A stretch of DNA of 64,000 bases from a phage, in the sequence record NC_135728.1, one strand, 5' to 3'. How positions within the stretch are numbered: the stretch's first letter is position 1; every line of letters begins with the position of its first letter. Positions 26,981 to 35,709 of the stretch are shown here, one piece after another. The translations under genes were made by a program, and so were the position numbers. Below the pieces are notes generated by a model. The model worked only from the letters and a program-made list of their open reading frames with translations, was not told the DNA's origin and did no database searches.

Positions 26981-28102
26981 TTAGATAAAACGCTTGAACA
27001 TAGAAGGTGATGAGATTGATGGAATCACACAAGGAAGTGCTACCTCCTCTTTCTCCAGGAAATTAATTGCAGAAGCTACACAGTCAGCCCAGTCGTCTTT
27101 TCTGTTAAATGTTGATCTTTCCCCGTTGAATTTTTCAAGTTCGGTCAGAAATGCTTCCAGAGTATCAGGATGGAAACTGGATTTTACAATCCTCACCATC
27201 CCTTGTTGGGCAAGATTGGCAAAAGGTGAGAACCTTGTCAGTTTAGACTTGTTGGAAGGCATTGGGTCTTCTTCAACCCTGAACCCTTCTGCGAGCAAGG
27301 ATCTGGATGAGGTTAAGAACTCACTCTTACCTGCCTGACCAGGGTCCACAGAGAATACGATTATGCAATCATCACCATCAAACTGCGCCTGTTTCCTGAT
27401 GATCACATCTCGTTCACCAGCCTTTTTACAGAACTTGCCTTCCAGACCTGTGGAATACCTCCCGTCATCCACGTTTTCAGGACAATAATCCCCTGACAGG
27501 TAATAAAAGCCGTCGCTATCTTTACTTACCTTAATACTGGCAGTAAAGTCAGGAAATTTATTGCCAGAAGTTCTCTCGGTTCCTGCCTTATCCCATGCCC
27601 TGCAAGATACTGATCCAAGGGGTACTCTATCGGCATCACGAAGGAAAGATCTTTGAAAATAGTTTGCACCCTCAGGCTTTGCAAACCAGTTACCATGGAG
27701 AAGCTGAGCTTTTTCCAGCTCTGGTAGACCTTCGAGGAAAGCAAGGTATTCTGGGTTGTCTCTCAAACAGACAGGATTATCAAATATTGTTGCGCCTATG
27801 AACGAGAATGACAACGGTCTTGGCTTGATCTCTACACCCAGTCCGTTAACCGTGGTGTATTTCTCTATCAACTCTTCCTTAGAGTCTCCCCAAATAAATT
27901 CACCGTCGCGTCGGATAAAATATCTTTTCTTACCACATTTCTCCGGATCTGGATACCCTTCATCGTCCAACCACCATCTAACCAGTTTGGCAAGCATGTG
28001 TTCTGAATCAGGGTTACAGCTGATAACCATCCTTGATGGATACTTTGACTGAGATCGCAGACGAGACATCAGATAGTCTATCTGCTCCCATTCAAATTGT
28101 GT
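26981..28102 (-). CDS. terminase large subunit, exon 2 (nuclease half); 5' boundary approximate
   Basis: Frame continues upstream of the annotated Met (TQFEWEQIDYL-MSRLRS...); contains MVISCNPD motif; different frame from exon 1, reconciled by removing the intron. Confidence 0.75.
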   Translation of the reverse strand, partial: TQFEWEQIDYLMSRLRSQSKYPSRMVISCNPDSEHMLAKLVRWWLDDEGYPDPEKCGKKRYFIRRDGEFIWGDSKEELIEKYTTVNGLGVEIKPRPLSFSFIGATIFDNPVCLRDNPEYLAFLEGLPELEKAQLLHGNWFAKPEGANYFQRSFLRDADRVPLGSVSCRAWDKAGTERTSGNKFPDFTASIKVSKDSDGFYYLSGDYCPENVDDGRYSTGLEGKFCKKAGERDVIIRKQAQFDGDDCIIVFSVDPGQAGKSEFLTSSRSLLAEGFRVEEDPMPSNKSKLTRFSPFANLAQQGMVRIVKSSFHPDTLEAFLTELEKFNGERSTFNRKDDWADCVASAINFLEKEEVALPCVIPSISSPSMFKRFI

Positions 28103-28421
28103 CGTTTATGTTCGGGCAAGGTCGCTAGTCTTGCCCCGCCATTTTCAGGCAGCTGCATGTCTCCATGCAGACCAGACTATATCTTATAAGCGACAACAAC
28201 CGCTTACCCTCCCGTTTCGAATCGCTTGATTCTACGTCTCTCGACTAGTCGTTGAACGTTCATCCTCTCGGATGCTTCGCTGCGGATTATCTAAATTAAC
28301 ACACTGTTACCCTACCTTCGATCTCTCTTCGAAGCCTCTATCATGTTACCATGACAGGTTGGTGGTGTCAATAATAAAGATTTCCCCGCAATTAGGGAGG
28401 TTTTACGAGAGCTGCAAATTA
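28103..28421 (-). ncRNA. group I self-splicing intron (ORF-less, about 319 nt) interrupting the large terminase gene
   Basis: Minus-strand sense contains the four conserved group I core elements: P AATTGCGGGGAAA (plus 28381-28400 region), Q AATCCGCAGC (28279-28288), R GTTCAACGACTAGTC (28243-28257), S AAGATATAGTCTGG (28172-28185); in-frame stop right after the 5' splice site; intron ends in G. Confidence 0.8.
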
Positions 28422-28847
28422 ACCCTCATCGAAGCAAACCATGGTGTACTCAAGCCCCTGATGGTTAAGCTTATCTTGTACATACTCCATGTGGCAGTAT
28501 TTTACAACAGCTCCCTTTTTGCTTCTATCCCACTTACCAGTGTTCGGATCAAACCGTGGAAAAATGAACTTATGATCCTTCTCTCTGAACTTTGGCTTAA
28601 TGTTTTCAGGCAGATCACTATAAATAGCTACTGCTTTAGGCCATAGTCCACCCTCACCTTCCAACTGTGGGGTTGTTCTTCGGAACATAACCACAGAGCT
28701 GTGGGGGTCATCAATAATTTTAAGTGGCATCAACTGCAAGAGGAACGACTTGCCAGACCCTGCGGCACCTCCGATTACCAAAATATCTGCATCGTTTTCT
28801 AGGATCATCTTCTGCTTTTCAGAACACGGTCCGTAAATCTTAGACAT
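28422..28847 (-). CDS. terminase large subunit, exon 1 (ATPase half)
   Basis: Walker A GGAAGSGKS and Walker B VCFDE; ends at ...VCFDEG followed by an intron-borne stop. Confidence 0.8.
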
Positions 28848-29950: not shown

Positions 29951-30027
29951 TGGTCTCCACGGAGTGATTCGAACACTCGACCTCCTGATCCCAAATCAGG
30001 CGCTCTACCAAGCTGAGCTACGCGGAG
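29951..30027 (-). tRNA. tRNA-Pro (anticodon UGG)
   Basis: Manual fold: acceptor CTCCGCG/CGTGGAG, D-arm GCTCAGCTTGGTAGAGC, anticodon loop TTTGGGA, T-loop TTCGAAT, encoded CCA. Confidence 0.8.
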
Positions 30028-30038
30028 TATTTATAATT

Positions 30039-30113
30039 TGGTGGCCCTGGGTGGAATTGAACCACCATCTGGCGATTATGAGTCGCTTGCTTGAACCTTC
30101 CAGCTACAGGGCC
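30039..30113 (-). tRNA. tRNA-Met (anticodon CAU; could alternatively be a lysidine-modified Ile2-type)
   Basis: Manual fold: acceptor GGCCCTG/CAGGGCC, anticodon loop CTCATAA, T-arm GGTGGTTCAATTCCACC, encoded CCA. Confidence 0.75.
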
Positions 30114-30114
30114 A

Positions 30115-30190
30115 TGGTGCTGATGGCAGGACTTGAACCTGCAACCTATTGATTACAAATCAATTGCACTGCCAATTGTGCTACATCAGC
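30115..30190 (-). tRNA. tRNA-Thr (anticodon UGU)
   Basis: Manual fold: acceptor GCTGATG/CATCAGC, anticodon stem ATTGA/TCAAT with loop TTTGTAA, T-arm GCAGGTTCAAGTCCTGC, encoded CCA. Confidence 0.85.
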
Positions 30191-30196
30191 AAAAAG

Positions 30197-30294
30197 GTGC
30201 TAGGCGGTGGAATCGAACCACCTATGTATTCAACGACTACCTCGTCTATTTTCAGGATTAAAAATCCTCGCCCTTGCCAAAGGGCTTACCTAGC
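30197..30294 (-). tRNA. atypical tRNA-like gene (about 98 nt; canonical acceptor and T-arm, aberrant anticodon/variable region, CCA not fully encoded)
   Basis: Acceptor GCTAGGT/GCCTAGC and T-arm GGTGG-TTCGATT-CCACC are canonical; only a 4-bp AGGA/TCCT stem with loop TTTTTAA and a ~30-nt region before the T-arm; positions 8-9 are AA. Confidence 0.4.
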
Positions 30295-30392
30295 TCAGTA
30301 TGTTGACCATGTTGCTAGTCGGCGATGACGACTGTAACATTTGATAATCCGGTTCTGCTTCCGGCTTTCGCTTAATTACAAGGTCAACAATG

Positions 30393-30483
30393 TGGCGGAG
30401 AGTAATGGAATCGAACCATCATCGAGTCATCCTCAATGGGACGGTTTTCAAGACCGCTTGAGCACCATTGCTCCCTACCCTCC
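30393..30483 (-). tRNA. tRNA-Ser (anticodon UGA), class II with long variable arm
   Basis: Manual fold: acceptor GGAGGGT/ACTCTCC, anticodon stem GCGGT/ACCGT with loop CTTGAAA, long variable arm, T-loop TTCGATT, encoded CCA. Confidence 0.75.
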
Positions 30484-30598
30484 TTTATAAATTATACTGA
30501 TAATGACACTGATTTTCGAGCAGTTAGTGACTAGTATAAACGACGATAAATATCAATGCCATTATCTGTATTATTTACGCATCTAAAAAATATAAATT

Positions 30599-30685
30599 TG
30601 GTGGGGAGTGGTGGAGTCGAACCACCCGAGTCGCAATGACAATAGATTTACAGTCTACACCGCTACCTCTACGGGATAACTCCCC
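30599..30685 (-). tRNA. tRNA-Tyr (anticodon GUA), class II
   Basis: Manual fold: acceptor GGGGAGT/ACTCCCC, anticodon stem GTAGA/TCTAT with loop CTGTAAA, T-arm GGTGGTTCGACTCCACC, encoded CCA. Confidence 0.8.
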
Positions 30686-30689
30686 AATT

Positions 30690-30764
30690 TGGCACCCCGT
30701 ACTGGACTCGAACCAGTGTCAACGGCTTAGAAGGCCGCTGCTTTATCCACTAAGCTAACAGGGC
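30690..30764 (-). tRNA. tRNA-Arg (anticodon UCU)
   Basis: Manual fold: D-arm GCTTAGTGGATAAAGC, anticodon stem GCGGC/GCCGT with loop CTTCTAA, T-arm ACTGGTTCGAGTCCAGT, encoded CCA. Confidence 0.8.
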
Positions 30765-32074: not shown

Positions 32075-32642
32075 AGTAAATCTTATTTAACATTACCTCA
32101 TCTTTTGCAGAAAGAATACCGAAATATGCATCACCGAATCTACCTGCAACAACCTCTGCATGATACATCACTTCGTTAATATCGTCAAGAGTGATAACTG
32201 GATGACCGTATCTCTCTGAGTATTGTCTCAGAGTGCGATGTAGAGAGTCATCATCATAGGCAGACTTTTTAATATCGCAAACACGACGAATAGCCTTGAT
32301 GTCGAAAAACCCTGTACGATACCAACCAAGAAAAAGGTTTCGTGCAGTGTCAACATCTACATCAATACCATCAAGAACCTTATCTACAAGATAGCTGTCA
32401 TCCTTTGGACCTGCTTCCTTAGTGCGAATGTAGTTGCCATCTTTTCCAGGTGACAGCTCCTTCTCATCACCAACCTGCATGCCATCATTTGGCGGTGTTA
32501 ACCACTTATCCGGATGCTTACGATCACGAGCGTTAGAATGATTACGCTGGAAACCTGGCTTCCACTTGAAAGTTTTCTCCATCTGTTCTTCATTCTGATA
32601 ACGTTTTGCAATCTTTTCACGGTCATCTTTGCGTGGACTCAT
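32064..32642 (-). CDS. hypothetical protein (192 aa)
   Basis: ORF track; GGAGG RBS upstream of ATG. Confidence 0.5.
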   Translation of the reverse strand: MSPRKDDREKIAKRYQNEEQMEKTFKWKPGFQRNHSNARDRKHPDKWLTPPNDGMQVGDEKELSPGKDGNYIRTKEAGPKDDSYLVDKVLDGIDVDVDTARNLFLGWYRTGFFDIKAIRRVCDIKKSAYDDDSLHRTLRQYSERYGHPVITLDDINEVMYHAEVVAGRFGDAYFGILSAKDEVMLNKIYYER

Positions 32643-33145
32643 AGCTGCCTCCTCTTCAAGTTATAGAAAAACTCACTGTATCGCTTTGTAACGAGCTTTT
32701 CTATCAAACTGGTGCGATTGCCTTACTTGGTATAGTTTATATGGCTGTGGAGCGATTTAGGGGCCTCATTGTCCGTTTCCACACATAAACTTTATCCAAA
32801 CTCGCGCGGGAATCTCTCAACCGACTCCTTACGGCGCTGGCAAGCTTTCGTCGGTGGTCCACATTAGTGCTCGGCCTTTGGCCTGCGCTATCGCTTCGCT
32901 CCCACACATGTTAACAGACCTGCATGTATGCACTTCTGTTATTGTGTGCACTATGGAGGCCCGGCATCTCGCCCCTCGTAGGCGAGTGCCAATGAAGGGC
33001 CGACACTACCTATAGAAAGTAATAAATTTAAAACATGGTACTTAGGATCTAGTATATTCTACATAAGTTAAGTATATGTACTTAGTACCATAAGTACTAG
33101 ATCTTTTATTTTTTATTATTTAGTTATTTTAGTTATATTCTTTAT

Positions 33146-33228
33146 GTGTCCGTATCACGGACAGTTAGTGTCCGTATCACGGACAGATGTGTCCGCGTGA
33201 CGGACAGTAGTGTCCGTATCACGGACAG
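33146..33228. repeat. array of four ~19-bp palindromic repeats (GTGTCCGTATCACGGACAG) at 21-22 bp spacing
   Basis: Copies at 33146-33164, 33168-33186, 33189-33207 (centre variant GCGTG) and 33210-33228; half-sites TGTCCG/CGGACA are perfect inverted repeats. Confidence 0.85.
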
Positions 33229-33302
33229 TTAATAGTTTCTGTTCCATGGTGAACATAAAACATACAAATCCTTATAGTACAGATATTTAAGTTTTTACTG
33301 GT

Positions 33303-33653
33303 CTAACCAGTTGTTGACATTCGAATAACTTCTTCTGGTGGCAAAACTTTGGAAAATGTGCATCTTTTACCTCTCCCTTGTGTGGATGTTTCAACAACTC
33401 CTGCACATTCTAAAGTTTTAACGCACGCTGCTGCTTTTGTTTTCTTTATCCCAACATCTGCTGCAATTTTCCTTGTGCTTGGTGTGAAGTGTGAATTTCC
33501 TCCAAGCTTATACCAGTTGTGCAGGTAGCAGTATACAATCTTGTCATACAAGTCAAGAACAACAACCTCCCCAGTTGTGTCATTCAAAACTTTTGACATA
33601 GATAGTATTTCAAGGGGGACTTTAAGATATAGCAGCTTATCCCCATCTTTCAT
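33303..33653 (-). CDS. putative DNA-binding protein (116 aa)
   Basis: ORF track; helix-turn-helix-like segment (TPSTRKIAADVGIKKTKAAACVKTLECAGVV); 75 bp from the palindromic repeat array. Confidence 0.4.
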   Translation of the reverse strand: MKDGDKLLYLKVPLEILSMSKVLNDTTGEVVVLDLYDKIVYCYLHNWYKLGGNSHFTPSTRKIAADVGIKKTKAAACVKTLECAGVVETSTQGRGKRCTFSKVLPPEEVIRMSTTG

Positions 33654-33700
33654 ATCTCCTGATTCTCCTTGTGTGGCAATTTTCTTTAAAATAGCAGGGA

Positions 33701-34255
33701 TTACTCCCTGCTGTCAATATCAAAACTCATTGCAATACGGTATGCCTCTTCTAATGGTAAGAGTCTCCCCCACACATCCCAACCGACATCAAACTGTCTA
33801 CCAAACAACTGTTGTGTGGTTCCGTGAGCATGACCGAACAGTTGGACTGATCCGTGATGCTTTCTGTTCCACGTTGCAAACTGGTAATGGCTCATACAGA
33901 TCAAATTCTTGTTGTGGCGAAGCTCGTAATAATCTACAACCTCATGACCGAACTCTTTCATAATTCTGACAGTCGTCCTTGTGTCATGGTTGCCACGAAC
34001 AAGAATAATATGTCCGTTCAACATATTTAGAATATCTGGAAGTAAGTTGTTGATATTCTTATCATTAGTGCACGCAATATCTCCCAGGTGGAACACAGTG
34101 TCTGCAGGTGACACAACTGAGTTCCACTCGGTGATGATTCCCGCATTCATACTGTCAAGATTGTGATCATATTGAGATCTGTGTTTTTGACATGAATCAA
34201 ACTCCATGACCCGCTGGTGGAGAAAGTGCGTATCGCTTGTTACAAAGTATTTCAT
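33701..34255 (-). CDS. calcineurin-like metallophosphoesterase (putative RNA 2',3'-phosphatase of an RNA-repair set)
   Basis: Motifs DTHF, GDIA, GNHD, GHAH; start set at internal Met with GAGGAA RBS just after the kinase stop. Confidence 0.65.
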   Translation of the reverse strand: MKYFVTSDTHFLHQRVMEFDSCQKHRSQYDHNLDSMNAGIITEWNSVVSPADTVFHLGDIACTNDKNINNLLPDILNMLNGHIILVRGNHDTRTTVRIMKEFGHEVVDYYELRHNKNLICMSHYQFATWNRKHHGSVQLFGHAHGTTQQLFGRQFDVGWDVWGRLLPLEEAYRIAMSFDIDSRE

Positions 34256-34262
34256 ACATTCC

Positions 34263-34673
34263 TCATTTAAGTTTAATGCAGTTTTTAAGCTGGCGTTCCA
34301 TACGATCCACAACCTTGTCTGGAACATCATGAATGCTTTTATTACCGTGGCGGTTTTCAACCACGATTACGGTATAACTATACCCATGACTGATTGCCAT
34401 GTCAACATATTCCTGCACATGTTTTTCTTTTGTAAACGTATTACTTACCACGATACGGTCGTATCCCATACACATCATATCTTCTACGTTATCTTTGCAC
34501 CATTTTGCTGCGAGTGTTACTTTACTTGCATCCCAGTTGTAATTGCCGTCATCGTCATACCAAAACATGTCATTCTCAAAATGTGGATACAGACCTTCTA
34601 AAGATAGCGCATTTGCCAGTGTTGATTTGCCAGACCCTGGCAGACCACGCACGATATATAGCATTTTAGACAT
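34263..34673 (-). CDS. P-loop polynucleotide kinase-like protein
   Basis: Walker A GLPGSGKST near the N-terminus; start at Met of MSKMLYIVRG with GGAGG RBS 7 nt upstream; ORF-track N-terminal extension judged spurious. Confidence 0.6.
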   Translation of the reverse strand: MSKMLYIVRGLPGSGKSTLANALSLEGLYPHFENDMFWYDDDGNYNWDASKVTLAAKWCKDNVEDMMCMGYDRIVVSNTFTKEKHVQEYVDMAISHGYSYTVIVVENRHGNKSIHDVPDKVVDRMERQLKNCIKLK

Positions 34674-34773
34674 AGCAATCCTCCGTTTTAATTTTAATGA
34701 TAGTATACCTAACTGTTTTGTTAATTTCAAGTGTTGACACCAGGTTGTTTGTGTGGCAGGATAGACTGACAAA

Positions 34774-35709
34774 ATGACAAATGAGGAACGTATGATGAAG
34801 TATTTTAATGCAGATGACCTAGTAGACAAAGGTCTTGTAACCAGTCGGTATTATCCAGATCTTGGATTAAAGATCTATAAATATGCCAGAAAAGTATTCT
34901 ACAACAATCTGTGGCATTTGTCTCCGCGTTTACTGGAGTGCCGAGGTATTGTTGTTGGCAATGAGGGGAATGTTGTGGCATGGCCTTTCACAAAAGTATT
35001 CAACTTAGGAGAAAACTCCACCAACCTACCGGACAGTAAACTTGTTACTGCGGTAGAGAAAAAGAACGGATTCCTCGGTGTGGTATCATCTCATAAAGGT
35101 GAACTATTGTTCTCAACAACCGGGTCTCTTGATTCCCCATATTGTAACCTCGCAAAAGAAACCATCAGGGAGCAATGTGGTAATTTAGATCTTATCAAGA
35201 AGGTTATGGGCAATGAAAACATGACATTCATGTTTGAAATTTGCCACCCTTCAGATCCGCATATTGTTCAGGAAGATCATGGCGCATATTTGATAGGTTG
35301 CAGATATAATGATTCTGGAATAATGCTACCAGAAGCAGCTTTAGATGGGATTGCCAAATACCTTGGTGCAAAACGTCCTCACACTGTGCGTGAAATTCCG
35401 TTCAGCTATGCAAAAGAATTAGCTGCAGAAACAAGAGGTGAAGGGTATATGATTCGTAAGCCTTACTACCCTTATGATCTGCAGCTGAAGATCAAGTCTC
35501 CATACTATCTGGCACGGAAGGCAGTAATGAGGGGTAAAGCTTGGAAGATTTGGGATGATGATATCTTTAAACGTGTTGACGAAGAGTTTTACGGTATGGT
35601 AAAATTTATTCGTAGCAACTATACAGAAGATGTGTGGAATTGCTTATTAGAGCAGGAGCGTCGTGAGATACTGGACTACTATTTCCACAACGAGGACTAT
35701 ATGCAATGA
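34774..35709 (+). CDS. RNA ligase, T4 Rnl1-like
   Basis: Stretches resembling T4 RNA ligase 1 as recalled: LECRGI, KVFNLGEN, nucleotidyl-transferase motif I KKNGFL, LFSTTGS. Confidence 0.65.
   Translation: MTNEERMMKYFNADDLVDKGLVTSRYYPDLGLKIYKYARKVFYNNLWHLSPRLLECRGIVVGNEGNVVAWPFTKVFNLGENSTNLPDSKLVTAVEKKNGFLGVVSSHKGELLFSTTGSLDSPYCNLAKETIREQCGNLDLIKKVMGNENMTFMFEICHPSDPHIVQEDHGAYLIGCRYNDSGIMLPEAALDGIAKYLGAKRPHTVREIPFSYAKELAAETRGEGYMIRKPYYPYDLQLKIKSPYYLARKAVMRGKAWKIWDDDIFKRVDEEFYGMVKFIRSNYTEDVWNCLLEQERREILDYYFHNEDYMQ

Follow-up and report, generated by a model that had tools for sequence, protein, structure and literature searches.

In the annotated record of phage lambda, four 18-bp iterons (TCCCTC-N5-GAGGGA) start at codon 117 of gene O, with start-to-start distances of 20, 24 and 23 bp and a total span of 85 bp. 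The 76 % AT tract that directly follows them is the least stable in the locus, and the least stable 40 bp begins right past iteron 4. A second described system is that of PLE, a satellite of a Vibrio cholerae phage, whose replication requires both the RepA protein and a semi-palindromic repeat (PMC7145576). RepA binds this repeat of the PLE origin in electrophoretic mobility shift assays, and its N-terminal domain (PDB 4RO3) is a dimer in the crystal that is RepA_N-like by structure only; dependence on the SF1B helicase of the phage and remodelling of the origin have been proposed for it (PMC7145576). The RepA_N initiators of Gram-positive plasmids such as pSK41 and pTZ2162 bind dyad-containing direct-repeat iterons as dimers (PMC7145576).

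The DNA analysed here, a 64,000-nt stretch of record NC_135728.1 (hereafter the window), comes from an rV5-like phage of Escherichia coli (Vequintavirus) and, over the 3-kb region round the repeats described below, is 98.6 % identical to phiWec193 and 97 % identical to rV5. The phage is a 137-kb lytic myovirus with its own polymerase and helicase-primase, and the rV5 genome encodes both a DnaB/gp4-like helicase-primase and a PIF1-like SF1B helicase (PMC3606486). The rV5 origin was sought by skew analysis, in which every change point was ascribed to a switch in the direction of transcription, and the origin was not located (PMC3606486). In the window, all genes leftward from about 34.7 kb lie on the minus strand. 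Read in that direction, an AAA_33 kinase-like gene and a metallophosphoesterase gene are followed by a sigma-70-like promoter, a winged-helix gene, 74 nt of spacer, an array of four dyads, an AT-rich tract, about 300 bp of non-coding DNA and a 192-aa gene to which no function was assigned. The features of this module are as follows, with the dyad units called iterons after the role proposed for them.

33020..33145, no strand: AT-rich tract, candidate DNA-unwinding element, about 81 % AT over 100-120 bp
33146..33164, no strand: iteron 1, G-TGTCCG-TATCA-CGGACA-G, the copy closest to the AT-rich tract
33168..33186, no strand: iteron 2, here of the same sequence as iteron 1
33189..33207, no strand: iteron 3, with a variant centre, G-TGTCCG-CGTGA-CGGACA-G
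33210..33228, no strand: iteron 4, the copy closest to the winged-helix gene
33303..33653, minus strand: winged-helix gene, 116 aa, orthologue of rV5 gp075, DNA-binding domain only
33688..33717, minus strand: sigma-70-like promoter, TTGACA-18-TG-TATTTT, 10/12 match with an extended -10, upstream of the winged-helix gene

This layout closely resembles that of ori-lambda. Both comprise four direct repeats that are 6+5+6 dyads at roughly two-turn spacing, spanning 83-85 bp, and in both the least stable AT-rich tract comes directly after the array (PMC3349717). In both, the array lies about 117-145 codon-equivalents from the start of a winged-helix gene and transcription reads through it, which on the rV5-like side is predicted from the position of the promoter. 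There are also differences. The iteron is based on TGTCCG here and on TCCCTC in lambda, and there is no detectable protein homology to lambda O, against which the profile of the 116-aa protein family gives an hhalign probability of 0.05 %. Whereas the lambda iterons are inside gene O, those of the rV5-like phage are non-coding and lie past a stop codon, and the 116-aa protein has neither a C-terminal domain that recruits a helicase loader nor a P-like helicase loader encoded next door. No relic of such a C-terminal domain was detected downstream of the winged-helix gene. By analogy, the rV5-like module may work like ori-lambda, but it is not a member of the O family.

Four dyads beside the least stable DNA of the genome

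An earlier note, made from the letters of the window alone, had described four 19-bp palindromic repeats with half-sites TGTCCG/CGGACA at 21-22 bp spacing, and both reading of the sequence and a repeat finder bear this out. The array at 33146-33228 consists of four units of the form G-TGTCCG-N5-CGGACA-G and spans 83 bp; the units at 33146, 33168 and 33210 read GTGTCCGTATCACGGACAG, the unit at 33189 is the variant GTGTCCGCGTGACGGACAG, and their starts are 22, 21 and 21 bp apart. Every unit is a dyad in which the arms TGTCCG and CGGACA enclose a 5-bp centre (6+5+6), and three of the four extend to 7+3+7. In rV5 and most relatives, iteron 2 has the centre TATTA and a degenerate right arm, CGGGCA. 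The genome-wide search for further copies of TGTCCG-N5-CGGACA that had been suggested was run with up to one mismatch and returned four matches in 64 kb, all within the array, where 0.03 were expected; none of 100 dinucleotide shuffles reached four matches. The closest relative, whose complete genome has 138,673 bp, likewise carries the dyad in this array only, and the bare hexamer is no commoner there than chance predicts (21 observed against 26 expected).

The array is non-coding, with no ORF of at least 50 aa over it on either strand, and it starts about 75 bp past the stop codon of the winged-helix gene. It is therefore downstream of the small gene and not in its promoter, a point that the note had overlooked. 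Some GenBank records list the array as a repeat_region found by Tandem Repeats Finder, without an assigned function, and our literature search found the motif nowhere mentioned. Record MG065672 is broken exactly at the array edge, which is probably an assembly artefact of the repeats.

The AT-rich, palindrome-rich stretch said to neighbour the array is real, and it is extreme, at 81 % AT over 100-120 bp. It adjoins iteron 1 directly, carries the inverted repeats 33035-33045/33081-33091, and has the highest AT content and the lowest stability at segment lengths of 60, 100 and 120 bp, both in the 64-kb window and in the complete 138.7-kb relative. At a length of 100 bp, its free energy is -102.2 kcal/mol, whereas segments of this size average -133.1 (sd 5.8) and the second-least-stable one comes to -112.2 (window) or -111.1 (complete relative). 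The tract contains two GATC sites (33046 and 33100), which do not exceed the genome density, and clustering of Dam sites was rejected as a feature of the locus. A host DnaA-dependent origin was likewise rejected, there being no enrichment of DnaA-like boxes.

The promoter at 33688..33717 corresponds to P76 in the rV5 record, and from its sequence and position, transcripts starting there would cross the winged-helix gene and then the iterons and AT-rich tract. A scan of 32500-34900 found no terminator-like sites, and a consensus scan of the minus strand from the array to the next gene detected nothing sigma-70-like that scored 9/12 or better. No sigma-70-like promoter overlaps the array on either strand, in a scan whose coverage did not extend to phage-specific promoter types. 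The nearest sigma-70-like site is a 9/12 match on the plus strand (33250-33278) that starts about 22 bp from the array. An Rfam search of 32500-33400, both at the gathering threshold and up to E = 10, gave far-sub-threshold chance matches only.

From the AT-rich tract to the next gene, the window contains about 300 bp of GC-richer non-coding DNA (32700-33000) that is kept in the genus. It folds somewhat better than shuffled sequences on both strands (z = -2.0 and -2.5) and has neither an Rfam match nor a homologue outside the genus. Here rV5 has a 17-bp deletion (32925-32942), and its record calls a doubtful 56-aa ORF78. This segment was considered as a conserved partner element and rejected for want of homology beyond the genus; it was also considered as a relic of an O-like C-terminal domain and rejected, as tblastn gave no signal except from the array itself. 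ORF77, considered as a partner or as a relic of the same kind, proved likewise unrelated.

Within the genus, the array was compared across 12 genomes, which have three, four or six copies; iteron 3, or iterons 2 and 3 together, have been lost or duplicated in the relatives with three or six. Over the 46 units of these genomes, the arms deviate at symmetric position 3 only (TG[T/C]CCG), with one such change in a left arm and ten in right arms, while six different centres occur and the flanking G..G is invariant. Arms that are fixed save for one symmetric position, round centres that vary, are characteristic of half-sites that a protein reads. L008, the most divergent genome, differs from the window at 3/20 centre bases and 1/48 arm bases. 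Of the 660 bp of non-coding DNA, the AT-rich tract and iteron 1 vary least, which is weak evidence of selection because the genus is very uniform. In the six-copy variant of O157 typing phage 14 (L005, 1357-1500), a 47-aa CDS is annotated over the array and is almost certainly an artefact of the repeats.

A winged-helix protein related to the PLE initiator

The small gene with a helix-turn-helix-like segment that had been noticed near the array at 33303-33653 is a real gene; it is encoded on the minus strand, its product is a winged helix, and the gap to the array is 74 nt. Pfam places DUF6945 slightly over the threshold and HTH_36 slightly under it; Phage_rep_O (PF04492) is absent from the Pfam matches, and RepA_N (PF06970) gives no match up to E = 1. 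The PHROG families that the protein matches are labelled 'replication initiation protein', and sequence records variously call the gene a transcriptional regulator, a DNA-binding protein or a replication initiation protein; in the literature searched, it is nowhere tied to an origin. Outside the genus there are about eight weak matches among 1.84 billion representatives. By direct search the protein is almost an orphan, and its relatives had to be reached through profiles and synteny anchors. The resulting family profile splits these relatives into two groups, one of domain-only proteins (105-122 aa) and one with C-terminal extensions (182-217 aa).

A structure model built on an alignment of 22 sequences reached a pLDDT of 83, while a prediction from the single sequence could not be used (pLDDT 45). 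Among characterised proteins, the nearest relative is the PLE RepA N-terminal domain (4RO3), with a profile E-value of 6.6e-14, and this domain is also the top fold match. Foldseek additionally aligned the model to the RepA_N plasmid initiators 4pql, 4pt7 and 5kbj over about 100 columns (E = 1.5e-3 to 6e-3, TM 0.55-0.57), and regulators of the MarR, CodY, GntR and Crp types also resemble the protein in sequence and fold. By profile and fold, the 116-aa protein thus belongs with the PLE RepA N-terminal domain (DUF6945) and only loosely with plasmid RepA_N.

The common ground with PLE RepA is the fold of the N-terminal DNA-binding domain and, as in RepA_N systems generally, semi-palindromic direct-repeat iterons near or within the gene (PMC7145576). 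PLE RepA, however, continues into a C-terminal domain with no counterpart in the 116-aa protein, the two iteron sequences show no relationship, and PLE is a satellite that borrows the replisome of its helper phage, whereas here the module belongs to the phage itself. With the RepA_N plasmid initiators, the protein shares a winged-helix N-domain with an N-terminal extension; their lineage-specific C-terminal domain is absent from it, although the 182-217-aa relatives have C-terminal extensions.

Among these longer relatives, P0008, P0011, P0014, P0016 and P0022 end in an acidic ...D-x-P-F tip (DEAPF, DTPF, DAPF, GEPF and EEPF), which we take to resemble the C-terminal tip of bacterial SSB. If this likeness holds, the proteins that bear it could dock on SSB-interacting replication proteins, and such a tip would suit a replication protein. 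The protein of the window has no such tip.

Related modules and the same dyad in unrelated viruses

Comparable loci were found by using the neighbouring phosphoesterase as a synteny anchor and by inspecting the surroundings of remote members of the family. In other phages, too, small and mid-sized members have neighbouring repeats, phased at 22-26 bp, whose sequence differs from lineage to lineage: CTCAAATTGA-type repeats in Seunavirus-like genomes, TATTCC-N6-GGAATA in a Klebsiella phage, ..GGGAC..AGGTACA in L020/L021, and three AAGGGTCA-N3-TTG dyads in contig L023, a number reached by none of 200 shuffles. The least stable segment adjoins the repeats in all six such loci, which mostly have two copies and in which the DNA searched was intergenic and hence AT-rich anyway.

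The dyad of the rV5-like phage was also found far outside the genus. A scan of public collections for two adjacent copies of TGTCCG-N5-CGGACA returned eight viral and 18 bacterial contigs (L026-L051), against a roughly estimated chance expectation of about 0.02 matches in the larger collection. None of these contigs is related to rV5; their GC content ranges from 40 to 73 %, and they have up to seven copies at 20-25 bp. In seven of the viral contigs (L027-L033) and in a Treponema locus (L038), the array lies within an ORF of 284-419 aa and begins 30-50 codons past the winged helix. Six of these ORFs match HTH_36 or PHROG families for 'replication initiation protein' or 'replication initiation O-like' (families 270, 391, 345, 678, 428, 8102 and 186); the scan gave no family match for the ORF of L029, nor for that of L026, and L031, which duplicates L030, was left out of it. 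The 60 bp after the array is well above the locus average in AT content in seven of the eight loci, the exception being L028. Pfam searches of the genes downstream of the array-bearing O-like genes, considered as helicase loaders, gave no matches.

These O-like or HTH_36 initiators therefore share with the rV5-like module the dyad itself, the 20-25-bp phasing, 2-7 copies and the AT-richer tract that follows. Several PHROG families are common to the array-bearing ORFs and the small proteins of rV5, Seunavirus and the Klebsiella phage, with families 270, 428, 8102 and 186 matched by both the O-like initiators and the 116-aa protein. In addition, the N-domain of the Treponema protein aligns to the family of the window's protein with an hhalign probability of 92 % (E = 7e-7). 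They differ in their length of 284-419 aa, in that the array is coding sequence within the gene, and in their hosts, which are mostly high-GC bacteria. The initiators of the uncultured viral contigs and of Treponema are known from sequence alone.

The bacterial arrays occur in Sorangium, Byssovorax and other Myxococcales, Treponema, Planctomycetota, Trueperaceae, Hymenobacter and Xanthobacter, L038 being the bacterial locus whose gene context was analysed. The viral contig L026 (70 % GC) has the centres CGTGG and TATTG in common with the rV5 group.

A probable origin and the alternatives to it

The earlier note had offered an operator, an iteron array, an origin or a partition-like site as possible roles. 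Of these, the iteron-origin option has gained: because the same dyad occurs in O-like initiator genes elsewhere, the neighbouring protein is kin to the N-terminal domain of PLE RepA, the geometry is that of ori-lambda and the least stable DNA of the genome adjoins the array, we favour the view that the four dyads serve as the iterons of a replication origin and that its initiator has been pared down to the DNA-binding domain, and we regard it as fairly probable. The partition option finds no support, as no ParA, ParM or TubZ gene lies nearby, and the operator remains the main rival. Binding of the iterons by the 116-aa protein is predicted from their adjacency and from homologous N-domains whose genes hold the same dyad, and we infer that origin opening, helicase loading and origin activity would take place at the array.

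In the mechanism that we propose, dimers of the 116-aa protein would occupy the four iterons, with one monomer for each TGTCCG half-site. Given the 21-22 bp spacing, the iterons are on one face of the helix, where the dimers could pack into a single compact nucleoprotein complex, as lambda O does at ori-lambda. This complex would strain the adjoining AT-rich tract until it melts. Transcription through the origin assists lambda replication, and read-through from the winged-helix gene's own promoter might similarly assist opening here. The DnaB/gp4-like helicase-primase and the PIF1-like SF1B helicase of the phage would then load at the opened tract. Since the protein has no domain beyond its DNA-binding fold, recruitment would be architectural or would pass through another factor, as has been proposed for PLE RepA.

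The chief competing explanation is that the dyads form a transcriptional operator at which the winged-helix protein, or some other regulator, binds cooperatively and turns a promoter close by on or off, with no part in replication; its target could be leftward transcription that continues past the array into the following genes, or else the weak promoter-like site that points rightward at 33250-33278. The resemblance of the protein to MarR, CodY, GntR and Crp-type regulators speaks for this, as do the many records that name a 'putative transcriptional regulator', the Seunavirus-like loci in which the repeats stand just upstream of the small gene's start, and L020/L021, in which a strong sigma-70-like promoter follows them at a distance of about 60-100 bp. 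In the window, however, the array is downstream of a stop codon and over no sigma-70-like promoter on either strand, and no minus-strand site of at least 9/12 follows as far as the next gene. An operator also leaves unexplained why the array adjoins the least stable DNA of the genome and why the same dyad occupies the ori-lambda position in the initiator ORFs of other viruses, and the closest characterised relative of the protein is an origin binder. We consider a purely regulatory array unlikely. Iteron-binding initiators often autoregulate too, so the roles of operator and origin are not exclusive. It is a good deal less probable that the array is the decaying relic of an O-like initiator gene with an internal origin, truncated after capture, in which functionless repeats persist by descent and slippage. 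The layout does resemble an O-like gene stopped just ahead of its iterons, copy number drifts from three to six in the genus, and its members are so closely related that conservation is no proof of selection. Set against this are the confinement of arm changes in the 46 units to one symmetric position while the centres vary, the same bias in L008, and the low variability of the AT-rich tract and iteron 1; moreover, domain-only homologues next to repeats recur in other genera, and no remnant of a C-terminal domain is detectable downstream.

Two further explanations have very little in their favour. The array might be a pac site bound by the small terminase subunit or a partition centromere bound by a centromere-binding protein. 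The circularly permuted genome reported for rV5 implies headful packaging from some pac site (PMC3606486), and record MG065672 breaks at the array edge. Among the flanking genes, however, there is no ParA, ParM, TubZ or small-terminase family, only the metallophosphoesterase, the AAA_33 kinase-like protein and proteins without assigned function; over 4 kb separate the array from the large terminase gene, and a break in an assembly is the expected effect of repeats on an assembler. Centromeres such as parC, sopC and tubC typically contain tandem phased repeats, and the array is centromere-like in this respect, yet a strictly lytic phage has no plasmid stage and the relatives of the neighbouring protein are initiators, so we hold a pac or partition site to be very improbable. 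The last explanation, that the units act in RNA as four stem-loops that terminate transcripts, direct their processing or are bound by an RNA-binding protein, appears more improbable still. Every unit has the potential for a stem of 6-7 bp capped by a loop of 3-5 nt, and conservation of the stems combined with variation in the loops would agree with this, but no unit is followed by a T-run and Rfam gives no match. The earlier note had named a common genome-wide terminator hairpin as a finding that would count against its reading; this check was negative, the motif being unique in 138.7 kb with no terminator-like site in 32500-34900, and a terminator or dispersed REP-like hairpin was rejected on these grounds. 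Furthermore, because single-arm changes fall on either arm, G-U pairing is not consistently kept on either strand, and compensatory double changes are absent.

If the array is indeed an origin, its DNA-binding-domain-only initiator would be a simple system in which to study how RepA_N-like proteins open origins, which the PLE work states as unknown. The rV5-like phages are among the most frequently isolated E. coli phages and have uses in typing, biocontrol and therapy; a concrete origin of about 640 bp (gene, iterons and AT-rich tract) would serve replication studies, phage-dependent replicons and reporter constructs, and would help to read the copy-number variation of the array. One iteron sequence in initiator genes of several phyla also offers a search pattern for origins in uncultured viruses. 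More speculatively, Vequintavirus and related large lytic myoviruses may in general use a bare iteron-binding initiator that, unable to recruit a helicase alone, would act solely by reshaping the origin and passing it to the phage SF1B or gp4-like helicases, a handover so far hypothesised for PLE RepA. The dyad TGTCCG-N5-CGGACA would then be an 'iteron dialect' common to initiators of unrelated viruses across bacterial phyla, which raises the prospect that phages, satellites and prophages recognise one another's origins; this extension is tentative, and we would not yet expect it to hold.

Several other features of these genomes were observed. In the window, the large terminase gene is split by a group I intron (Rfam RF00028, 79.4 bits) at 28153-28457 on the minus strand, its ORF pieces being 26981-28069 and 28419-28847. 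A minus-strand cluster of tRNA genes (Pro, Met, Thr, Ser, Tyr and Arg) occupies 29951-30764, within which ARAGORN makes an additional odd call of a 99-nt tRNA with a four-base anticodon (30196-30294) that neither Rfam nor the rV5 annotation reports. Across the complete phiWec193 genome (L013-L015), GATC is found above the base-composition prediction (718 seen, 523 expected). Finally, 18 'Campylobacter phage' records (MG0656xx, host Campylobacter jejuni) are 95-98 % identical to the E. coli rV5-like phages in this region, and their naming looks like a host or labelling problem.
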